From Candidatus Gottesmanbacteria bacterium (GTDB lineage: Bacteria > Patescibacteriota > Microgenomatia > 2-02-FULL-39-11), in NCBI GenBank assembly GCA_016186795.1, contig JACPKY010000002.1, forward strand, positions 465,044 through 529,043: a DNA stretch of 64,000 nucleotides, given 5' to 3'. Within the stretch, counting starts at the first letter, position 1, and every line of letters starts with the position of its first letter. The notes under the pieces were generated by a model. The model searched no databases. It was not told the DNA's origin and was given only the letters and a program-made list of their open reading frames with translations. This document shows positions 36,404-52,903 of the stretch, piece after piece. The translations under genes were made by a program, and so were the position numbers.

Positions 36404-38290
36404 TTAACAAACACCCGTGTTTGTATTACCTTGAGAGGGGACGCCACATGTCTTCCAGGATCCACCATCTGGTTCTCTCCCAATTGCTGTATCTTCTCCT
36501 GGATCAGAAAGGTATTGATGTTGATCGATTAGTGTCCCATCTCCTGCAAATAGAACGACAAAATCTCCACCATCATTAAGAAAACCTGTACCGAGAAGTT
36601 GAAAAGGGTAGAGAGGATTTGAAGTATTAAGAGATGTTAGTGGAATTTTATCACTACTCCCTGCATCGCTATCAAAATTGGTATCATCATCAATATAAAA
36701 TGAAGAAAGATCGATGCTACCCGGATTGTAAAACTCGACCCATTCCTGCGGAAATGTTGACCCAACATGGGCAACAAATTCATTGATAAGAACCTGAGAA
36801 CCTGTTGGAGACGGCGTGGGAGTCTCTGATGGGGTAGGAGTTGGGGTATCAATTGGAGTTGGAGTTTGGGTAGGGGTAGTTAATGGTGTTACCCCGGCAT
36901 CAACTGCTATTTCTCCATCGGAACGAACTGTATTGTAAATTTTTACTTCGTCGATAAAGCCGTTGAAGTTACGACCATCTCCTTTTTTTCCGATAACAAC
37001 TGGTTGTCCGGAAGAACTTGGTATTAATTGAGCTTCGGTATGCTGTAATAACCCATTTATATAAATTTTTGTTTGAGCTCCATCATTTGTAAATGCAATA
37101 TGGTACCAATTGCCTATCGTTAAAGGTAGAGATGTTGCGCATACTTGAGTATTTGCAAACATAAATACACTTCCGCTTGTGCCACATCGGCTCCCATCAT
37201 CTACCCCAAACGCCCATGAACTTCCAATGTTACTTTTTGCAATTGGATACCGAAAATCATCAAGTGAGTTTGGTTTTATCCATAATGCAACAGTTAAAGG
37301 AGCACTATCGGGCAGACTTGTAGAATCCAAAACATTTATAAAATCATCATTACCATCATTAATTATTGCTCCATTCACTTGGCCACTTCCTGTCCAACCT
37401 GATGAAACTGTTGGTGGATCACCATAGAAATTTAGTGCTCCATTATTACCATTCCCCGAGGAATCATTTGCTGTCGTTCCGGTTCCTTCATCCAAATTTA
37501 AATATAGGACCAATGGCCCTATTGGACCTGTTGTGGGACTTGGTGTTGGAATCGGGGTCTCTGTTGGAGTTGGAGTATCTGTGGGAGTAGGCGTTTCGGT
37601 AGGAGTAACTGTTGGAGTTTCGGTTGGTGTGGGAGTATCTGTTGGAGTCGGTGTTAATGTTTCTGTTGGTGTAAGAGTTGGGGTTGGAGTATCTGTCGGA
37701 ATCTCTGGAGGTGTCGGAGTGATGGTCTCGGTTGGAGTTGGAGTCTCTGTTGGGGTTTCTGTTGGAGTCAATGTCGGTGTCGGTGTTTCGGTGTGAAGAG
37801 GGGTAGAACTTGGTGTTGGCGTCACGGTCTCTGTTGGTGTTGGTGTTTCGGAAGGAGTAGGTGTTGGCGTATCACTCGGAGTGGGAGATGGAGTTTCTGT
37901 CGGTGTCGGCGTTTCTGTCGGAGTTGCCGTTGGTGTTTCGGTTGGTGTGGGAGTAATTGTTTCAGTTGGAGTGGGAGTTTCAGTTGCGGTAGGGGTTGGC
38001 GTTTCTGTTAAAGTGGGGGTTGGCGTTTCGGTGGACGTCGCAGTTGGAGTAATAGTAGGTGTTGGAGTTACTGTAGGCGTAGAGCCACCGAGCGGCTGCA
38101 ATGGGGCAAGTGTCGGAAGTGGTACAAGTGTAGGAAGAGGATTAAGTCGGGGAAATGGCAAAAGTCTTGATAAATTCGGTAGAGGAAGAAATGGAAACTG
38201 AAAAGCGTATGTTGTCGTTGGGGTAACAAAAAGTGTTGCTAATCCTAAAAAGCAACCTATAAGAAAAAGGCGAATATTGAATAATTTCAT
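36404..38290 (-). CDS. Secreted surface protein: signal peptide, long Thr-Pro-Glu repeat linker, LamG-like (concanavalin-A-like lectin) domain, second TP linker, lamin-tail domain (LTD)
   Basis: Signal peptide [22 protein letters not shown], then about 250 aa of TPTPTETP repeats. The LamG_3-like core is [22 protein letters not shown]...LWIKPNSL...[25 protein letters not shown]...[12 protein letters not shown]. The C-terminal LTD is [37 protein letters not shown]. The ORF track extends to 38392 (MHICTCLPP...), but that extension contains a complete intrinsic terminator hairpin. Confidence 0.7.
37500..38110 (-). repeat. Coding tandem repeat array (ACN-CCN-ACN-GAR units) encoding the TPTPTETP linker
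   Basis: Visible nucleotide periodicity (ggagt-/gttgg-/gtcgg-type units). Gives rise to spurious GVGV ORFs on the opposite strand (37533..37796, 37881..38201). Confidence 0.6.
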
Positions 38291-38305: not shown

Positions 38306-38331
38306 TAAAAAATCCACCGGTGACGGTGGAC
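38306..38331 (-). terminator. Intrinsic terminator (CCACCG-TCAC-CGGTGG + U6) inside the leader / N-terminal extension of the LamG-LTD gene
   Basis: Minus-sense GGTCCACCGTCACCGGTGGATTTTTTATTTCGG: a perfect 6-bp GC-rich stem with a tetraloop followed by a U-tract. Confidence 0.5.
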
Positions 38332-38394
38332 CTGCATCAATGGTAATTAAAAGATTCTTCGATAACGGAGGTAGGCAAGTGCATATATGCATTC

Positions 38395-38421
38395 ATTGAC
38401 CTCCGTGTGCGGTTGGTCAAT
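38395..38421 (-). promoter_or_regulatory. Conserved leader RNA stem-loop, copy A (lower stem ATTGACC/GGTCAAT, loop AACCGCACACGGA) embedding an SD-like GGAGG
   Basis: Minus-sense ATTGACCAACCGCACACGGAGGTCAAT. ACGGAGGT can alternatively pair with ACCTCCGT (38365-38372). Confidence 0.45.
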
Positions 38422-38437
38422 ACTTTAGATTAATTTC

Positions 38438-38465
38438 ATTCTACTTGGGGACTATCATCTGTCAA
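38438..38465 (-). promoter_or_regulatory. Sigma70-like promoter TTGACA-16-TAGAAT for the LamG-LTD leader
   Basis: Minus-sense CTAGTTGACAGATGATAGTCCCCAAGTAGAATG, located between the sortase stop and the leader motif. Confidence 0.35.
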
Positions 38466-42068: not shown

Positions 42069-43265
42069 TTACAGGGAGAGTGTATTCAGGACATCGTTAA
42101 GATGTGTCTGAACCGCTTCCATGAGTGATGCCCATCCTGCCATCACGCTACCACCACCGGTATTGTAGTCTCCGGCGTTATTCCCAGCATCAACAACACT
42201 ATTTACAGTATTGAAGACTCCGAGATACTCAGGTTCACACCCATCGGTCTCACTCCATGGTCTCCATGGATTTCGAATCCGATCAGCGTTGTGAGACTGG
42301 CACTTGTTATTCCAGTTATCTACAGTTACGTTTTTATTGTTATTCACGTACTGTGCATTATTGGAATACGGACCTGTTACACTACTTGAAGCATCATTGG
42401 CGAATCCGCCCATGGCTGTTGCAATCATAGTCGTGTTGATATTCCCTTCGGTATTGACACCAACTCCGGCTGTTGCATTTCCTGTTGTAATATCGCCTCC
42501 CAACGTGTTGTAGGATGCGCTATTATTCCCAGTTAATGCACGTGCGTTCACTCTGTTTTTGACTTGGAGGTCATTCACATTGTTCACGTACGCGTAGATG
42601 TCGTTGTTGATGACTGCCGCATTGTTAGAGAATGGTCCAGTTGTGCTATTGAATGCAGTGTTGTTCCCAGTACCACCTGCCCCAAGGTTAAGGTCTGTCA
42701 AACTGTCATTCACATGTGTCAGTACTCCAAGATTTAACCATGAATTTCCAGTTTGAACGGTTGCTGGACCGGTATTGTAGTCTGCACTATTATTCCCAGT
42801 ATCAGCTGTTGCATTCACACTATTCTTCACTGTGGCGGTATTACTGTTGTATACATCGACTCTCGTTCGATTGTTGATGTATGCAGCGTTATTGGAGTAA
42901 GGTCCGGTAATTTCGTTACCAGCGATGTTGTTTGAACCTCCAGATCCAATTGTCAGATTGGTCGTACTGATGTTTGCAACTGAAGACACGGTTGTGTTGT
43001 TGGTCGCATTCCCAGTGACGATTGAGCCTCCCAGCGTATTGTAGGAAGCACTGTTGTTCCCAGTGTTAGACGTAGAATTCACTCTATTGATGATTTGAGC
43101 ATCATTGACGTTATTGACCGTCACATTGCTAGTGTTGTTTACAGTGCAGGTGTTGTTTGAAAACGGTCCTGTGGTACTGTTTGTACAACTGTTTGCAGCA
43201 AATGCCGGTACTAAGGTTGCAGCGAGTAAAACTGCTGCCCCTGTTAACGTTGCAATTTTTTTCAT
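42069..43265 (-). CDS. Secreted Asn/Thr-rich protein with four tandem ~90-aa repeats (paralog family)
   Basis: SD AAAGGAGGTG 9 nt before ATG. Signal peptide MKKIATLTGAAVLLAATLVPAFA. Four modules share TGP[FY]SNN...[VI]NN...VN...TGNNSA[SD]YNT.GG.I.TGNAT. Confidence 0.7.
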   Translation of the reverse strand: MKKIATLTGAAVLLAATLVPAFAANSCTNSTTGPFSNNTCTVNNTSNVTVNNVNDAQIINRVNSTSNTGNNSASYNTLGGSIVTGNATNNTTVSSVANISTTNLTIGSGGSNNIAGNEITGPYSNNAAYINNRTRVDVYNSNTATVKNSVNATADTGNNSADYNTGPATVQTGNSWLNLGVLTHVNDSLTDLNLGAGGTGNNTAFNSTTGPFSNNAAVINNDIYAYVNNVNDLQVKNRVNARALTGNNSASYNTLGGDITTGNATAGVGVNTEGNINTTMIATAMGGFANDASSSVTGPYSNNAQYVNNNKNVTVDNWNNKCQSHNADRIRNPWRPWSETDGCEPEYLGVFNTVNSVVDAGNNAGDYNTGGGSVMAGWASLMEAVQTHLNDVLNTLSL

Positions 43266-43365
43266 TAAGTTTTCACCTCCTTTCTTTTGTGTGATAACAA
43301 AACTGTCATTCTGCCTAGGAAAGAACACACAGCTTTGTCCAATCCAGTAAGTCAGTAATCACTCC

Positions 43366-43416
43366 AAAAAAATGAGGTAAGTCTCCTCCCGATAATATCG
43401 GGAGAATCCTTACCTC
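43366..43416 (-). terminator. Intrinsic terminator in the 5' leader of the repeat-protein operon (GAGGTAAG...CTTACCTC stem with nested TCCCGATATTATCGGGA hairpin, + U7)
   Basis: Minus-sense GGAGGTAAGGATTCTCCCGATATTATCGGGAGGAGACTTACCTCATTTTTTT. Shares GGTAA with the upstream motif stem, so the two structures are mutually exclusive. Confidence 0.55.
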
Positions 43417-43432
43417 CGTGTGCGGTCGGTAA
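43410..43432 (-). promoter_or_regulatory. Conserved leader RNA stem-loop, copy B (stem TTACC/GGTAA, loop GACCGCACACGGA); candidate antiterminator
   Basis: Minus-sense TTACCGACCGCACACGGAGGTAA. The loop sequence is conserved with copies A and C, while the lower stem differs but remains complementary. Confidence 0.5.
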
Positions 43433-43455
43433 TTAAAATTATTTTTCCAGCGCGC

Positions 43456-43620
43456 CTAAATTTGGTGGCTGGTTTTTCTGATATTTCTCTCTGTAATCTG
43501 TGTCACTTTGTTGTTTTGCACGTAAATCTCTACGGATCCCCAGCCGCGAATATTTTTGAGTGCTTGCTTTATTTCCTCAAGTAAATCCCTAGTAATTTTT
43601 TTGGTTGAGTAGTCAACCAT
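43456..43620 (-). CDS. Small protein, DUF2292/YezD family (54 aa), embedded in the 5' leader upstream of the conserved motif; absent from the ORF track (<60 aa)
   Basis: Translation MVDYSTKKITRDLLEEIKQALKNIRGWGSVEIYVQNNKVTQITERNIRKTSHQI*. The core GSVEIyVQNgKVTQIt.R matches the YezD-like family as I recall it. Confidence 0.5.
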   Translation of the reverse strand: MVDYSTKKITRDLLEEIKQALKNIRGWGSVEIYVQNNKVTQITERNIRKTSHQI

Positions 43621-43701
43621 TGGGCATTGTAGGCAGTTGCGGGCAGACTGTGAATGATGAGCAGATTTTGGGGCAGAAGTACGGGCTTTTTTCTAAGTCG
43701 C

Positions 43702-43731
43702 ACTATAAAAGATATACTCTTACCTTGTCAA
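43702..43731 (-). promoter_or_regulatory. Promoter TTGACAAGG-N15-TATAGT driving the leader of the repeat-protein operon
   Basis: Minus-sense CTCTTGACAAGGTAAGAGTATATCTTTTATAGTG; near-identical architecture to the promoter at 49891..49920. Confidence 0.4.
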
Positions 43732-49044: not shown

Positions 49045-49635
49045 TTACAGTCTAACTTTGAGCCACAGAGTATTCAGTTTGGTCGTGATAAGTGTCGTGA
49101 TACTTGCATCCCCACCGGCTGCTGTTCCATTGCCGGTATTATTGTTGGCAGTATTTCCTCCGGTATTGACGATTGAAGAGAACGTATTTGTTACATTACC
49201 GCTATTGGTTAGAGTAAACGTAAAGTTTTTGGTTGCATTGATATCAGCATTGACCGTTGAGTTTTGTCCGGTCATGTTGACAGTTATATTGTCACAATCG
49301 CATGTTGCATTATCATCACTAAGATCGACATCTACGTTGGATGTATTCATTTCCACTTCTTGTGTCTGATTTTGTGTGCTATTGCCGGCAATTGCTGTAC
49401 CATCTTTGGTGTTGTTATCCGCAGAATTATTTCCGGTTGTTGCATTGTACGTCACATTTTGCGTGAGCGTGTTGGCATTCGTTACTGTCAATAGATGATT
49501 CTTAATACGATCAATTCGTGCATTGACAACAGATTGCTGACCGGTGTTACTGATACTTATTCCTGCAAATGCCGGTACGGTACTTGCAAGGATCATCCCG
49601 ATACCCACTGCACCAGTTAAAAGTTTCTTTATCAT
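49045..49635 (-). CDS. Secreted Asn/Thr-rich repeat protein (short member of the paralog family)
   Basis: SD GGAGGTGAAAA + ATG. Signal peptide MIKKLLTGAVGIGMILASTVPAFA is conserved with the 42069 gene (…LTGA…VPAFA). Modules include NATTGNNSADNNTKDGTAIAGNST and NTGGNTANNNTGNGTAAGGDAS. Confidence 0.65.
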   Translation of the reverse strand: MIKKLLTGAVGIGMILASTVPAFAGISISNTGQQSVVNARIDRIKNHLLTVTNANTLTQNVTYNATTGNNSADNNTKDGTAIAGNSTQNQTQEVEMNTSNVDVDLSDDNATCDCDNITVNMTGQNSTVNADINATKNFTFTLTNSGNVTNTFSSIVNTGGNTANNNTGNGTAAGGDASITTLITTKLNTLWLKVRL

Positions 49636-49697
49636 TTTTTCACCTCCTTTCCCTTCGGCTACCCTCAGGGCAAGCCGGGCAGAGTATTTTGCTGCAT

Positions 49698-49735
49698 AAA
49701 AAACACTCTCTCCCGACTTAGTCGGGATTGAGTGT
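49698..49735 (-). terminator. Second terminator-like hairpin in leader C (CACTC-A-ATCCCGAC-TAA-GTCGGGA-GAGAGTG + U6) containing the TCCCGAY-N3-RTCGGGA palindrome
   Basis: Minus-sense ACACTCAATCCCGACTAAGTCGGGAGAGAGTGTTTTTTATG. Confidence 0.4.
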
Positions 49736-49831
49736 GGTTTGAGAGATGGGCAGACTACAATACATATTAGGCAGTAATCAAATTAAGATGAAAAATGATA
49801 CACCGGGCAGGTGTACATATTTTCCTTCGAT

Positions 49832-49860
49832 AAAAAAAGCAATCCTATCCTTTGGATTGC
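49832..49860 (-). terminator. Intrinsic terminator (GCAATCC-AAAGGATA-GGATTGC + U7) in leader C
   Basis: Minus-sense GGAGGCAATCCAAAGGATAGGATTGCTTTTTTTATCG. Shares GCAA with the 3' strand of the motif stem. Confidence 0.55.
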
Positions 49861-49880
49861 CTCCGTTTGCGGTGAGCAAA
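49861..49880 (-). promoter_or_regulatory. Conserved leader RNA stem-loop, copy C (stem TTGCTC/GAG(G)CAA, loop ACCGCAAACG)
   Basis: Minus-sense TTTGCTCACCGCAAACGGAGGCAA. The apical CCG-CAAA-CGG corresponds to CCG-CACA-CGG in copies A and B. Confidence 0.5.
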
Positions 49881-49890
49881 CTCTATATCC

Positions 49891-49920
49891 ACTGTAAAAC
49901 ATTTTTCGAACCCTTGTCAA
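49891..49920 (-). promoter_or_regulatory. Promoter TTGACAAGG-N15-TACAGT for leader C (divergent from the 49954 gene)
   Basis: Minus-sense TTGACAAGGGTTCGAAAAATGTTTTACAGTGG. Confidence 0.4.
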
Positions 49921-49953
49921 GTACCTATCTGTAACGATAGTATTTGTCTTGGT

Positions 49954-51495
49954 ATGATATACTCGTATCCGTTTCCAAAGAAATATATCGATATGAAAGC
50001 ATTCGTTTCTCTCGGTAAACTCTTTCTATTCCAATTTTTCCCATATGTGGTAGTTTTTACCGCATCGCTTTATTTCCCAAATGATTCTGACCTTGGCTGG
50101 CATCTTGCATACGGCGAATACTTCTTCCAAATAGGAACAATACTAAAAGAAAATATTTTCTCAACCACGATGGTTGGCTTTCCGTGGGTAAATAGTTCAT
50201 GGGGGACAGATCTAGTTACCTATTCTATTTTTTCTCAATTTGGATTCGTGGGTCTTTCTGTTGCAGCAGCACTTGTTATTACACTTATTTTCTTTTTCCT
50301 CTCACGGGCTTTCCGTCTCACTTTTTGGGAACGAGCCCTCCTTTTCCCAATCATGCTTTTTATGGAAATGCCCATGTTTGAAGTATCGTTTCGCGGTCAT
50401 CTCCTAACACTTCTTTTTGTTGCAATCCTCTATTTTCTCCTACGTCGATATGAGGAAGGAAAGTGGAAATTCCTCCTTCTTATCCCAGCTCTTTTTACTC
50501 TCTGGGCAAATATCCACGGTGCGTTTATCCTCGGACTTGGACTGGTCGGTATTTGGCACGGATTATATGTCGTCCGCACGTTTCTCAACACGGACAAAAA
50601 GGATCGGGTACGAAAAACACTCTCAGCAATCCGAACTGGTTTTCTCCTTCTTAGTGCCTCAATTGCGGGAACACTTATCCATCCGTTTGGAATAAAAATC
50701 TATGAAGAATCACTCAAACACTTCGGCAATCCCCTGCAAAGGTTTATTATCGAATGGCTCCCGTTTGATAGATTCTCACTTCTGTGGTGGACGCTTATCG
50801 CCTGGGAACTTCTCATATTCGTGAGTTTCGCAGTTATTATCAAAGAGAAAAAATTTACAAAACTCCTTCCGTGGATTGGAGCACCAGTCCTTCTTCTCAT
50901 TCTTTCTTTTTTCGTTCGGCGCTATACCTGGCCGCTTATCCTTATCTCACTCCCCCTTATCCGGCAAACAGCACGTATCATCAAACCAACGCTTGATGAT
51001 GTGTCTACTTCTATTGCAGTTTTTATCTTTGTTAGCCTCTACGGATACTATCTATTTTTTAACCCCTCGAAAGCTTTTCTTGCCCAACCCACTTGGAATA
51101 TGTACTGTGAATTCATAAAGTGCTCACCACAATCGGCAGAGTTTCTTCGCTCCCAAATCCTTCGGCAAAGCTCAGGACAAGCAGACTACTCCGGAAAGCT
51201 TATGACATTTTATAACTGGGGCGGGTGGATTATATGGAACTACTTTCCTGATATACAACCCTCAATTGATGGCAGAATGCATCTTTGGCAAGATGAAAAG
51301 GGCTATAGCGCATTTATCGAGTACTACCCGTATGAACAAAACTGGAAGGATATCGATGAGTCTTCCTACGATATTGTGTATATGACGACCGCAAAACCAG
51401 TACACAGGAGGCTTATGGAGCTGGTTTCTGAAAATAAATGGAGTGCTCCCTATTCTGATCCCTACGCCACAGTTTTTGTACGAAACAAGAAATAG
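49954..51495 (+). CDS. Polytopic membrane protein, probable GT-C glycosyltransferase
   Basis: 513 aa with 12+ TM segments, an early loop DLGWHLAYGEYFF, and a C-terminal soluble domain. Confidence 0.45.
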   Translation: MIYSYPFPKKYIDMKAFVSLGKLFLFQFFPYVVVFTASLYFPNDSDLGWHLAYGEYFFQIGTILKENIFSTTMVGFPWVNSSWGTDLVTYSIFSQFGFVGLSVAAALVITLIFFFLSRAFRLTFWERALLFPIMLFMEMPMFEVSFRGHLLTLLFVAILYFLLRRYEEGKWKFLLLIPALFTLWANIHGAFILGLGLVGIWHGLYVVRTFLNTDKKDRVRKTLSAIRTGFLLLSASIAGTLIHPFGIKIYEESLKHFGNPLQRFIIEWLPFDRFSLLWWTLIAWELLIFVSFAVIIKEKKFTKLLPWIGAPVLLLILSFFVRRYTWPLILISLPLIRQTARIIKPTLDDVSTSIAVFIFVSLYGYYLFFNPSKAFLAQPTWNMYCEFIKCSPQSAEFLRSQILRQSSGQADYSGKLMTFYNWGGWIIWNYFPDIQPSIDGRMHLWQDEKGYSAFIEYYPYEQNWKDIDESSYDIVYMTTAKPVHRRLMELVSENKWSAPYSDPYATVFVRNKK

Positions 51496-51499
51496 GTCC

Positions 51500-52903
51500 T
51501 CATCTACAGAGGAAAGAAAATCGACTACAGAATCTACTCCAGGGGTTTTTTGAATAAGAAGGCGTTGGCGTGGGTGTCGGAGTTTTTATTGTTGGAGTAG
51601 GAGTAGAAGTAGGCACTTTCGTTGGAGTAAGTGTAGGTGTCGGAGTTGGAACCGAGGTTGGAGTTGGGGTAATTGTCTGAGTTGGAGTAGGAGAGGGGAC
51701 AAAATTATTTGAAAATGACGCCATTGTTTTATAGGCATTTATCCTCCCATACACCCAAGAGACGTTTGTTCCCGCGATTCTATCCGTATTAGCAAAAATT
51801 GCATTTTCCACATCTTGAGCTGATAAACCAGAAATACTATAAACAAGTGCTGCAAGTCCTGCTACGTGAGGAGAAGCCATAGATGTTCCTGACAAACTCC
51901 CGTAACTCACCTTATTCATAGAATTTTGATAGTGGGGGAGTGTCGAATAGATAGAAACCCCAGGCGCTGCAACATCGACCCAATTTCCGAAATTTGACCA
52001 ACTCGGCTTCACATCGTTTTGATCAACAGCGGCAACAGAAATAACTCCTGGCAAATAAGCAGGATAACTTGGAGAATTTGTACCAGAATTCCCCGCTGCT
52101 GCAACGAGAACGACTCCCTTCCCCCGTGCGTAGTTGACACTATCGGCAAGCATCTGCGAAGAAGATCCGCCACCCAAACTCATATTGATTACGTTGGCGC
52201 CGTTATCTGCAGCCCACACAATACAATCCGCAATCCACGAATAATACCCAGATCCGGAATCTCCTAATGCTTTTGCATTGAGAAGACTTGTTTTATAACC
52301 AACGCCAGCTACCCCAATTCCATTATTTGTACTGGCGGCAACAATGCCTGCAACATGTGTCCCATGCCCGTAAAGATCCTCAACAGTTGAACTATCTGTA
52401 CAGTTCTTGGAACCAACTACTTTTCCCACCAAATCTTCATGAGTACTATCAATTCCTGTATCAACGATTGCAACTGATATATTGGAATTCCCTTCCGAAA
52501 TGTCCCACGCACGCCTTTGTCCTCCATACAACTCAACTTTTGGAAATCCCCACTGCAGATTATTTACAACCCCAGGATCGTTTATTAACACATCAGCCGT
52601 TGCCACGTAGTCTTTCTCGACATATTTCACTCGTGGATCTTGAGAAAGCTCCTCGCGAAAACTTCTCTCCTCTTCTGTGGGAACCTCAACGACTGCAATA
52701 TTCAGCTGATCAATAGTTGTAACCGGTGAGAGAGAAATACCTCTATGAAATTCCAGTCTGTTAAGGAAATTTCGATCTTCACTTTTTACAACTATTCTTT
52801 GTGATGTTTCACTAGCGTAAGTGGGTAAACGAGTTAAAAGAAGAAACGGGGAAAGAAAAAGGAGAATCAGGACAAGAAATTTATTCCAACTCCGTTTATT
52901 CAT
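51500..52903 (-). CDS. Secreted subtilisin-like serine protease (peptidase S8) with C-terminal Thr/Pro linker
   Basis: Signal peptide; catalytic triad motifs VAIVDTGID, HGTHVAGIVAA, GTSMASPHVAG; C-terminal [46 protein letters not shown]. Confidence 0.85.
   Translation of the reverse strand: MNKRSWNKFLVLILLFLSPFLLLTRLPTYASETSQRIVVKSEDRNFLNRLEFHRGISLSPVTTIDQLNIAVVEVPTEEERSFREELSQDPRVKYVEKDYVATADVLINDPGVVNNLQWGFPKVELYGGQRRAWDISEGNSNISVAIVDTGIDSTHEDLVGKVVGSKNCTDSSTVEDLYGHGTHVAGIVAASTNNGIGVAGVGYKTSLLNAKALGDSGSGYYSWIADCIVWAADNGANVINMSLGGGSSSQMLADSVNYARGKGVVLVAAAGNSGTNSPSYPAYLPGVISVAAVDQNDVKPSWSNFGNWVDVAAPGVSIYSTLPHYQNSMNKVSYGSLSGTSMASPHVAGLAALVYSISGLSAQDVENAIFANTDRIAGTNVSWVYGRINAYKTMASFSNNFVPSPTPTQTITPTPTSVPTPTPTLTPTKVPTSTPTPTIKTPTPTPTPSYSKNPWSRFCSRFSFLCR

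Follow-up and report, generated by a model that had tools for sequence, protein, structure and literature searches.

A leader of ~290 bases lies 5' of the gene for a 196-aa surface protein on the minus strand of the 64,000-nucleotide stretch of Candidatus Gottesmanbacteria DNA analyzed here (from contig JACPKY010000002.1; referred to below as the window). Comparison with related leaders suggests, with moderate confidence, that this region is the 5' leader of the mRNA for the 196-aa protein and that it acts as a factor-dependent transcription attenuator. Its principal elements are a conserved hairpin (HP1), an intrinsic terminator (T1) that shares a strand with HP1, and a second intrinsic terminator (T2) that lies closer to the gene. 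A preliminary description of the region had likewise proposed a cis-regulatory attenuator, and all of the elements that it listed were recovered on the minus strand at the coordinates given below. The proposal is supported by the covariation of HP1, the overlap of HP1 with T1 in 24 of 34 instances, the universal occurrence of T2 and the tight spacing between T2 and the Shine-Dalgarno (SD) sequence.

The motif formed by HP1 occurs in three copies in the window, designated A, B and C, of which copy C belongs to the leader of the 196-aa protein gene. Twenty-two orthologous leaders of the copy C kind (C-type) and 10 of the copy B kind (B-type) were gathered from Gottesmanbacteria, Curtissbacteria and other Microgenomates. 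Seventeen distinct leaders came from contigs encoding orthologues of the protein and from a pattern scan of genome and metagenome collections with the most conserved leader block, and five further C-type leaders, from other Microgenomates lineages, were reached via YezD loci (see below). Eighteen orthologues share 55-65% identity with the 196-aa product, which also has a distant named relative in Candidatus Gottesmanbacteria. Another, small protein encoded in the window is 100% identical to a Gottesmanbacteria protein in NCBI. Conservation of the leader nucleotides far exceeds that of the downstream protein, since the leader blocks are nearly invariant although the proteins are only 55-65% identical. 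One leader (L017, CAYIFB010000008.1) is from a metagenome-assembled genome labelled 'uncultured Gammaproteobacteria' and yet has a full Gottesmanbacteria-type cluster with both leader types; this contig is probably mis-binned. Insertions beside the leader-gene unit, with the leader intact, are seen in two loci and consist of a HicAB toxin-antitoxin pair (L010:5336-5769) and of small open reading frames (ORFs) that include a sigma-70 region-4 protein (L011:2579-5676). Rfam 15 at gathering thresholds gave no match in the window or in 10 related loci, and scans of the three window leaders with permissive E-values returned only chance microRNA matches.

HP1 (49856-49880; TTTGCTCACCGCAAACGGAGGCAA) is located only a few nt from where the transcript is predicted to start and matches its covariance model with 42.3 bits. 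The window copy consists of an outer stem P1 (UUUGCU/GGCAAU), a CA/A internal loop, an inner stem P2 (CCG/CGG) and a CAAA loop. The motif hairpin reported earlier is present, and its conserved fold (P1 as UUGCU/GGCAA, then the same internal loop, P2 and apical loop) is in a slightly different register from the one first drawn. In the collected leaders the outer stem of HP1 is 5-6 bp long, the internal loop opposes NA (5' strand) to a single A (3' strand), and the CCG-N4-CGG inner stem is invariant. The outer stem varies with its complementarity kept (UUUGCU/AGUAAA, UUUACU/AGUGAA, GUAGUU/AACGAC, UUGACC/GGUCAA and UUACC/GGUAA), the apical loop is variable (CAAA, CACA, UAAA, CCAU, CAAU, CCAA or CUAA), and the inner CCG/CGG pairs and the flanking A residues do not change. 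Across 28 distinct sequences, 87% of the cells for HP1 pairs are paired versus 14-45% in slid controls, double-sided changes occur in 24 cells and at five of the six outer pairs, and none of 500 shuffles reached the covariation score. RNAalifold recovers HP1 unaided. With the covariance model, just three sites of the window score above 30 bits, at 42, 34 and 33 bits; the best of the others reaches 12 bits. The model also matches copies in other genomes on which it was not trained. The 14-mer core ACCGCA[AC]ACGGAGG has three minus-strand copies (38400, 43413 and 49860), against ~0.5 expected with two mismatches allowed. On this comparative evidence the motif is an RNA hairpin of conserved structure. 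A DNA operator is disfavored, as the stem covaries with complementarity kept and one strand is held in common with the terminator. The minimum-free-energy fold of the window copy taken singly contains another small hairpin, GUUUGC/GCAAAC, alongside T1. As a conserved 5' fold it was rejected, being 73% paired with three double-sided changes, compared with 87% and 24 for HP1; in some leaders it may accompany T1 when transcription terminates.

T1 (49832-49860) has the form GCAAUCC-AAAGGAUA-GGAUUGC-U7. In the DNA, GCAATCC occupies 49860-49854 and GGATTGC 49845-49839, with AAAGGATA between the arms, and the T7 run follows at 49838-49832. The stem of T1 is 7-11 bp long and leads directly into U7. 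The HP1 3' arm of the window copy (GGCAA) falls inside the 5' arm of T1, so that the two folds are mutually exclusive. The sharing of GCAA between T1 and the motif stem had been pointed out previously, and GCAATCC does overlap the hairpin at 49880-49856. The HP1 3' arm doubles as a terminator 5' arm in 24 of the 34 distinct HP1 instances, a count for which five automatic parses were amended by eye; the 24 comprise 13 of the 22 C-type leaders, all 10 distinct B-type leaders and one orphan unit. Two folds that share a strand, one of them a terminator, are the hallmark of an attenuator, and HP1 and T1 have this relationship. Forcing HP1 to form cost 4-16 kcal/mol relative to the minimum-energy fold with the terminator in 15 of the 16 leaders tested, and for the window copy the terminator fold is 9.6 kcal/mol more stable than the HP1 fold. 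The preference for the T1 fold suggests that termination is the default.

T2 (49698-49735) has the form ACACUC-AA-UCCCGAC-UAA-GUCGGGA-GA-GAGUGU-U6 and corresponds to the second hairpin of the preliminary description, in which the TCCCGAC-TAA-GTCGGGA palindrome and the T6 run were correctly recognized. The window copy has a folding energy of -21 kcal/mol and is followed by U6. All 22 C-type leaders have T2, with folding energies of -18 to -34 kcal/mol and a U5-U9 run. Its outer pairs are mostly ACACUC/GAGUGU, with compensated variants such as CACCUU/AAGGUG and GGCACUC/GAGUGCC, and its inner helix, always paired, has a different sequence in nearly every leader. T1 and T2 both fit the hallmark of intrinsic terminators, a G+C-containing hairpin directly before a U-run.

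The promoter of the leader is of the sigma-70 type (49891-49920), with TTGACA (-35; 49920-49915) and TACAGT (-10; 49896-49891) separated by an 18-nt spacer and 10 of 12 matches to the consensus. It is kept across the orthologous leaders as CTTGACAAsCGTGAAAAAAATGTTyTACAGT. The likeness of this promoter to that of copy B, to which attention had been drawn before, is real (one mismatch), but a pattern search allowing three mismatches did not show it to be significant. The gene itself (49045-49635) begins with an SD (GGAGGUG, 49647-49641) and an ATG at 49635-49633 (49633-49647 together). The upstream neighbor, a gene for a 513-aa membrane protein on the plus strand (49954-51495), is divergent in the window and at every syntenic locus, where the order of divergent membrane-protein gene, 200-340-nt leader and gene is constant. 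Since the neighbor is divergent, the hairpin and U-run elements are not 3' terminators of an upstream gene, and the earlier argument that they act on their own leader holds. A consensus promoter scan of the window predicted no promoter between T1 or T2 and the gene. The distance from the U-run of T2 to the SD is 8 nt in L009 and ~20-25 nt in L011 and L023, which is too short for a separate promoter. Given the universality of T2, its tight spacing to the SD and the lack of a predicted internal promoter, the gene must be transcribed through T2, and no route of transcription into it other than through the leader is predicted.

The following series of events would be consistent with these features. 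Transcription would begin a few nt upstream of HP1, and only one of the two strand-sharing folds, HP1 or T1, could form. T1, usually accompanied by a small alternative 5' hairpin, would be preferred thermodynamically and would terminate transcription by default. A trans-acting factor, for which an RNA-binding protein is held to be most likely, would bind the invariant core of HP1 (the A/A internal loop and CCG-N4-CGG) and keep the hairpin closed, and closed HP1 would serve as an antiterminator that lets RNA polymerase pass T1. The polymerase would then have to pass T2, a stand-alone terminator without an encoded antiterminator, to reach the gene. Passage of T2 might depend on leakiness, on the same factor acting processively, on a factor bound to the adjacent CUGCC repeats or on a ribosome translating a short ORF. 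The same HP1/terminator module would gate two other surface-protein genes in the window. Within this scheme we infer the occurrence of termination in vivo, the existence and identity of the factor, and the direction of regulation.

The leading candidate for the trans-acting factor is YezD (DUF2292), a 54-aa protein encoded by a yezD-like gene inside the copy-B leader (43456-43620, minus strand). The promoter of copy B (43731-43702) and the 5' untranslated region of yezD, with three CUGCC units, occupy 43626-43731 on the minus strand, and HP1 (UUACC/GGUAA) with its overlapping terminator, GAGGUAAG...CUUACCUC-A-U7, lies at 43366-43436 on the same strand (32.8 bits). The order of promoter, three CUGCC units, yezD without an SD, HP1, overlapping terminator, a hairpin with GGCAG in its loop, SD and a gene for a 398-aa protein is maintained in Gottesmanbacteria, Curtissbacteria and other Microgenomates. 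HP1 is found 8-85 nt 3' of the yezD stop codon in every locus, and in all 10 distinct B-type leaders yezD is directly followed by HP1 and a terminator. Between class-level Microgenomates lineages YezD retains 74-89% identity, far above the conservation of the surface proteins, and it passes the Pfam model PF10055 (32 bits versus a cut-off of 22). A search of the literature on YezD, DUF2292 and OscA found no mechanism for these proteins. In no lineage does yezD have an SD, and a CUGCC is usually located 10-14 nt 5' of its start codon.

Several observations weigh against factor-dependent attenuation as outlined here, or against the part given to YezD. HP1 is retained in the nine of 22 C-type leaders that have no T1, where it is lengthened by a GAG/CUC extension, so that HP1 must do more than block T1 or must act processively. 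T2 is the only universal terminator and lacks a competing fold, which makes its regulation a matter of conjecture. Among the leaders compared, no consistent fold that competes with T2 and no encoded antiterminator were found; excluding T2 from the fold costs 6-14.5 kcal/mol, and its 5' arm then pairs with different segments in different leaders. A simple terminator scan of the window listed neither T1 nor T2, presumably because a stem extension that tolerates G-T pairs uses up the T-run of T1 and because T2 has internal loops; both fold clearly otherwise. No known antiterminator family was detected among the ~64 window ORFs scanned against Pfam. The only family link of YezD, to the NCBIfam equivalog model for OscA, is sub-threshold (27 bits versus 85), and its AlphaFold model is of low confidence (predicted local distance difference test score, pLDDT, of 68). 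A Foldseek search of that model against the PDB gave a best E-value of ~1 and no link to an RNA-binding protein, and a PDB sequence search with YezD returned only a spurious coiled-coil match.

Downstream of T1 the leader carries a further hairpin, HP2 (ACACC-UGCCC-GGUGU, 49800-49814, minus strand), which is followed by a U-rich run and is essentially invariant in the orthologues. The 5' half of HP2, CACCU(G)CC, is complementary to the SD GGAGGUG (49641-49647). RNAalifold proposed this pairing in 17 of 17 sequences, and no stretch of the leader pairs better with the SD than the 5' half of HP2 (-9.6 kcal/mol versus -5.0 for the HP2 hairpin). In predicted folds of full-length leaders, pairing of the SD amounts to 85-98%. 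According to these folding predictions the 5' half of HP2 could sequester the SD of the gene, both partners being invariant. The same half resembles an anti-SD, and the 3' arm of HP2, GGUG, resembles an SD. The 3' arm was rejected as an antiterminator of T2, as changes in the closing pair of HP2 are not compensated in T2 and the leaders show no other partner in common.

The CUGCCC elements that had been described as repeated are indeed so, with CTGCCC at 49810-49805, 49753-49748 and 49682-49677 and CTGCCT at 49774-49769 on the minus strand. CTGCC is enriched in the leader (four in 255 nt versus 0.66 per kb on the strand; Poisson P ~3e-5), and CUGCC repeats occur in both C-type and B-type leaders. 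The second unit is part of a conserved GAUUACUGCC(U) box (49769-49779), and a C-rich block, CUGCCCAUCUCUC (CUGCCCUCUGCCC in most orthologues), lies directly 5' of T2 (49741-49753). The fourth unit (49677-49682) is located between T2 and the SD. A cis bracket of CUGCCC with G(G/U)(G/A)CAG 3' of T2 was rejected by eye, since only CUG/CAG is constant and the mismatches in the middle are uncompensated.

A putative short ORF led by AUG (MYCSLPISQTTLNPD, ending in a stop codon) runs from 49765 to 49718 on the minus strand and raises the prospect that attenuation is coupled to translation. A ribosome on this ORF would melt T2 and so permit read-through, and stalling or a failure to initiate would lead to termination. 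The AUG (49765-49763), 12 nt 5' of the C-rich block, is kept in 21 of 21 leaders and shares the frame of the block in 20, and the peptide begins M-(Y/N)-C-C-L-P-S-A-Q. The ORFs are 13-52 codons long and always enter or pass the 5' arm of T2, that of the window ending in the T2 loop. The variants of the block, CCC>CCU and GCC>GCU, affect third positions and are synonymous, no antiterminator for T2 is encoded in the RNA, and yezD provides an instance in these genomes of initiation without an SD and with CUGCC 5' of the start codon. In the C-type leaders, CUGCC lies 4-6 nt 5' of the conserved AUG. The short ORF itself has no SD, whereas the main genes have strong ones, and no alternative hairpin accompanies it. 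Its C-terminal part is not conserved; past residue 10 neither the sequence nor the length of the peptide is maintained, the Cys-Cys pair is missing in 8 of 21 leaders, and the ORF of L025 is out of frame. Moreover, the C>U changes leave RNA pairing equally unaffected, and in L036 the partner box shows covariation. A homologous ACUGAC-UUUAUGA motif in the B-type leaders opens unrelated ORFs that are not conserved, which indicates that the AUG may be conserved as RNA. We consider a translation-coupled mechanism unlikely, though it is among the better of the alternatives to a factor acting on HP1.

Another alternative arises from complementarity between the two leader types. The block of C-type leaders (CUGCCCUCUGCC) is complementary over 12-15 nt to a box in B-type leaders, which is located in the loop of a covarying hairpin just 5' of the SD of the copy-B gene. 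Such complementarity is seen in five of eight genomes (L019, L025, L032/L033, L035 and L036), where z ranges from -3 to -5.8 and none of 300 shuffles is as good. Block and box differ in a compensatory manner (L019, CUGCCCUCUGCC/GGCAGAGGGCAG; L032, ...CUGUCC/GACAG...; L036, GUCUGCCUUCUGCUC/GAGCAGAAGGCAGAC), and the mismatches are G.U, not C.A. In the window genome (sites 49741-49753 and 43310-43330), L017 and L038, the complementarity is no better than in shuffled sequences (z ~0). From the sequences compared, it is an observation at the level of the family, not a property of the window copy. It could reflect pairing of RNAs in trans, a shared DNA site or inverted repeats for recombination.

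In the first of these cases the promoter-to-terminator unit would also, or mainly, be a small RNA (sRNA) gene, with transcripts ending at T1 (~55 nt) or T2 (~190 nt) that act in trans. Their CUGCC(C) boxes would pair with GGCAG boxes such as that in the loop of the copy-B hairpin and so couple the expression of paralogous surface proteins. The extended and compensated complementarity in the five genomes, the display of the B-box in the loop of a covarying hairpin and an orphan promoter-HP1-T1 unit without a downstream gene in L038 are all in keeping with such an sRNA. The orphan unit (L038:60-140, plus strand) is flanked by the 3' ends of two convergent genes and is followed by no ORF on the same strand; it may be a tiny stand-alone RNA or a remnant. 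The absence of significant complementarity in the window genome, L017 and L038 argues against the sRNA, and one double-stranded DNA site occurring in both orientations would account for the data equally well. The gene must be transcribed through the terminators regardless, so a cis role is required in any case. An sRNA function, alone or in addition, is judged to be improbable. A more elaborate proposal combines the two ideas, with YezD as an RNA-binding antiterminator on HP1, the CUGCC repeats or both, and with leader transcripts as sRNAs that pair with the GGCAG box, the whole forming a circuit for the surface proteins. This combination is speculative, and we regard it as less probable than either the sRNA or the translational mechanism. 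If it were true, YezD would be encoded inside one of the leaders that it controls, a layout like that of HutP or lambda N, and a small RNA-protein circuit would choose which glycosylated surface proteins are displayed by an ultrasmall cell of the Candidate Phyla Radiation (CPR).

Two further explanations of HP1 appear quite improbable. HP1 could be a very small riboswitch aptamer for a metabolite or ion, with T1 as the expression platform of an ON switch. An aptamer-like arrangement is suggested by the P1 3' strand held in common with the terminator and by an internal loop and inner helix that are invariant while the outer stem covaries, and the HMP-PP riboswitch sets a precedent for a tiny aptamer embedded in a terminator (PMC6478431). 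Only ~8 nucleotides of the 25-nt hairpin are invariant, however, and its apical loop varies. The regulated genes encode surface proteins rather than metabolic enzymes or transporters, Rfam gave no match, and HP1 is kept where T1 is absent. Alternatively, expression could be purely constitutive, with HP1 as a stabilizing 5' hairpin on surface-protein mRNAs of high expression and T1 and T2 as leaky terminators that set the level of expression, nothing being sensed. Hairpins at the 5' ends of S-layer and ompA mRNAs act as stabilizers, HP1 is at or near the predicted 5' end in C-type and A-type leaders, and its retention with a GAG/CUC extension in the nine leaders without T1 is what a stabilizer would lead one to expect. 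Against this, HP1 is internal, after yezD, in all B-type leaders, and a stabilizer has no need of an invariant internal loop or core and would not be expected to share a strand exactly with a stronger terminator in 24 of 34 instances. Attenuation by a factor that binds HP1 is the preferred reading.

The product of the regulated gene is a secreted, Asn/Thr-rich, predicted all-beta protein with 16 N-x-S/T sequons, compared with ~7.6 expected from its composition. Its all-beta structure model is of low confidence (pLDDT 52) and was judged too poor for a fold search. The product downstream of copy B is likewise secreted and Asn/Thr-rich, and searches of Pfam and NCBIfam gave no match for either protein, neither of which belongs to a Pfam family. 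The copy-B protein contains internal repeats of ~265 nt (~88 aa; 42156-43095, minus strand) that carry a TGNNSA.YNT motif also present in the 196-aa protein (31% identity). Pfam annotation indicates that the window is largely a cell-envelope glycosylation island. About half of it (1-34500) encodes at least eight GT2 proteins, two PMT_2 proteins, YfhO and a flippase, together with enzymes for rhamnose and GDP-mannose and UDP-glucose dehydrogenase enzymes, forming an island for glycans and protein glycosylation. The PMT_2 and YfhO proteins are of membrane-transferase type, and besides nucleotide-sugar enzymes the window encodes a sortase, an S8 peptidase and a LamG/LTD protein. This setting fits the idea that the sequon-rich surface proteins are glycoproteins. 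Degenerate periodic repeats of 6 to 24 nt (37521-38093 and 51561-51700) encode Pro/Thr-rich linkers in the LamG/LTD protein and the S8 peptidase.

Copy A (38310-38465, minus strand; 33.7 bits) precedes the gene for the LamG/LTD surface protein and consists of a promoter (38465-38438), HP1 (38423-38393), an anti-HP1 segment (ACCUCCGU) and a terminator (38333-38310). HP1 of this copy has no overlapping terminator; its ACGGAGGU is perfectly complementary to ACCUCCGU ~40 nt downstream, and the separate terminator lies ahead of the signal-peptide ATG at 38288. An in-frame ATG (38392) lies 7 nt 3' of the GGAGG of this HP1; initiation there would place 35 further residues before the signal peptide, which makes the start of the protein ambiguous. 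At the other side of the copy-C leader, a plus-strand promoter for the divergent gene (TTGTCA-N16-GATAGT, 49914-49941) overlaps the -35 region of the leader promoter, so that the two are arranged back-to-back (49891-49954), with only 33 nt from the -35 box of the leader promoter to the ATG of the divergent gene.

Members of the CPR have tiny genomes with few recognizable regulators, and their surface structures mediate an episymbiotic lifestyle. The leader described here would be a lineage-wide, multi-copy regulatory RNA for sequon-rich secreted proteins within a large glycosylation island. It also provides a testable hypothesis for the function of DUF2292/YezD/OscA, a widespread family of small proteins to which the sulfur-starvation protein OscA belongs. 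The size of the HP1/T1 module is suited to direct biochemical tests, and the module could serve as a native expression switch in the genetic systems that are emerging for Patescibacteria. The class of mechanism is well known. The RNA element, its use in multiple copies at surface-protein genes, the lineage in which it occurs and the link to DUF2292 appear not to have been described previously, and a literature search found no cis-regulatory RNAs specific to CPR/Patescibacteria.

Several known systems resemble the leader in part. The HMP-PP/thiS riboswitch likewise has a tiny conserved element fused to a terminator (PMC6478431), whereas the gene context here is non-metabolic, no ligand is suggested and Rfam gave no match. 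As in the trp, his and pheA leaders, a short ORF overlaps the terminator RNA, and most copies have tandem UGU UGU codons; the differences are the absence of an SD and of a conserved alternative antiterminator hairpin, Cys codons that are not universal and a gene that is not biosynthetic. The target RNA of ANTAR proteins has two tandem hairpins with hexaloops (A1, G4), the second of which overlaps the terminator, whereas HP1 is a single hairpin with a 4-nt loop, and the Pfam scan of the ~64 window ORFs found no ANTAR-domain protein. In the dfn leader, a small early hairpin is required for LoaP, a NusG paralogue, to promote read-through of downstream intrinsic terminators (PMC12691694). A likeness to LoaP or to lambda N/boxB would explain both the retention of HP1 without T1 and the passage of T2. 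The dfn hairpin has a UNCG tetraloop, however, whereas the HP1 loop is YNMW, and the strand-sharing of HP1 and T1 suggests a passive mechanism, unlike the processive antitermination of LoaP. No NusG paralogue or KOW protein was detected in the same scan of the window ORFs.

In the hut operon of Bacillus subtilis, the gene for the regulator HutP is the first after the promoter and a terminator precedes the structural genes, and HutP recognizes short repeated RNA motifs (PMC12591593). The copy-B leader is similarly organized, with promoter, (CUGCC)2-4, yezD, HP1/terminator and structural gene. It differs in that YezD/DUF2292 is unrelated to HutP and in that the CUGCC repeats are located 5' of yezD, not within the terminator. 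A further parallel is with the ribonucleic antiterminator (RAT) of the BglG/SacY/LicT family, an imperfect hairpin of ~25-30 nt with internal loops whose 3' part overlaps the 5' arm of a terminator. HP1 is not known to be related in sequence to the RAT consensus, no RAT model was among the Rfam matches, and the Pfam scan of the ~64 window ORFs revealed no protein with a CAT domain (PF03123) or PRD. The system differs from BglG/SacY also in its regulated genes, which encode surface proteins instead of functions in sugar utilization, in its CPR lineage and in the occurrence of HP1 without an overlapping terminator. In the case of LicT, a short leader hairpin bound by the protein blocks an overlapping and more stable terminator (PMC5393181, PMC12591593). 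HP1/T1 has this RAT geometry, together with the energy relation of an antiterminator that is stabilized by a protein or ligand.

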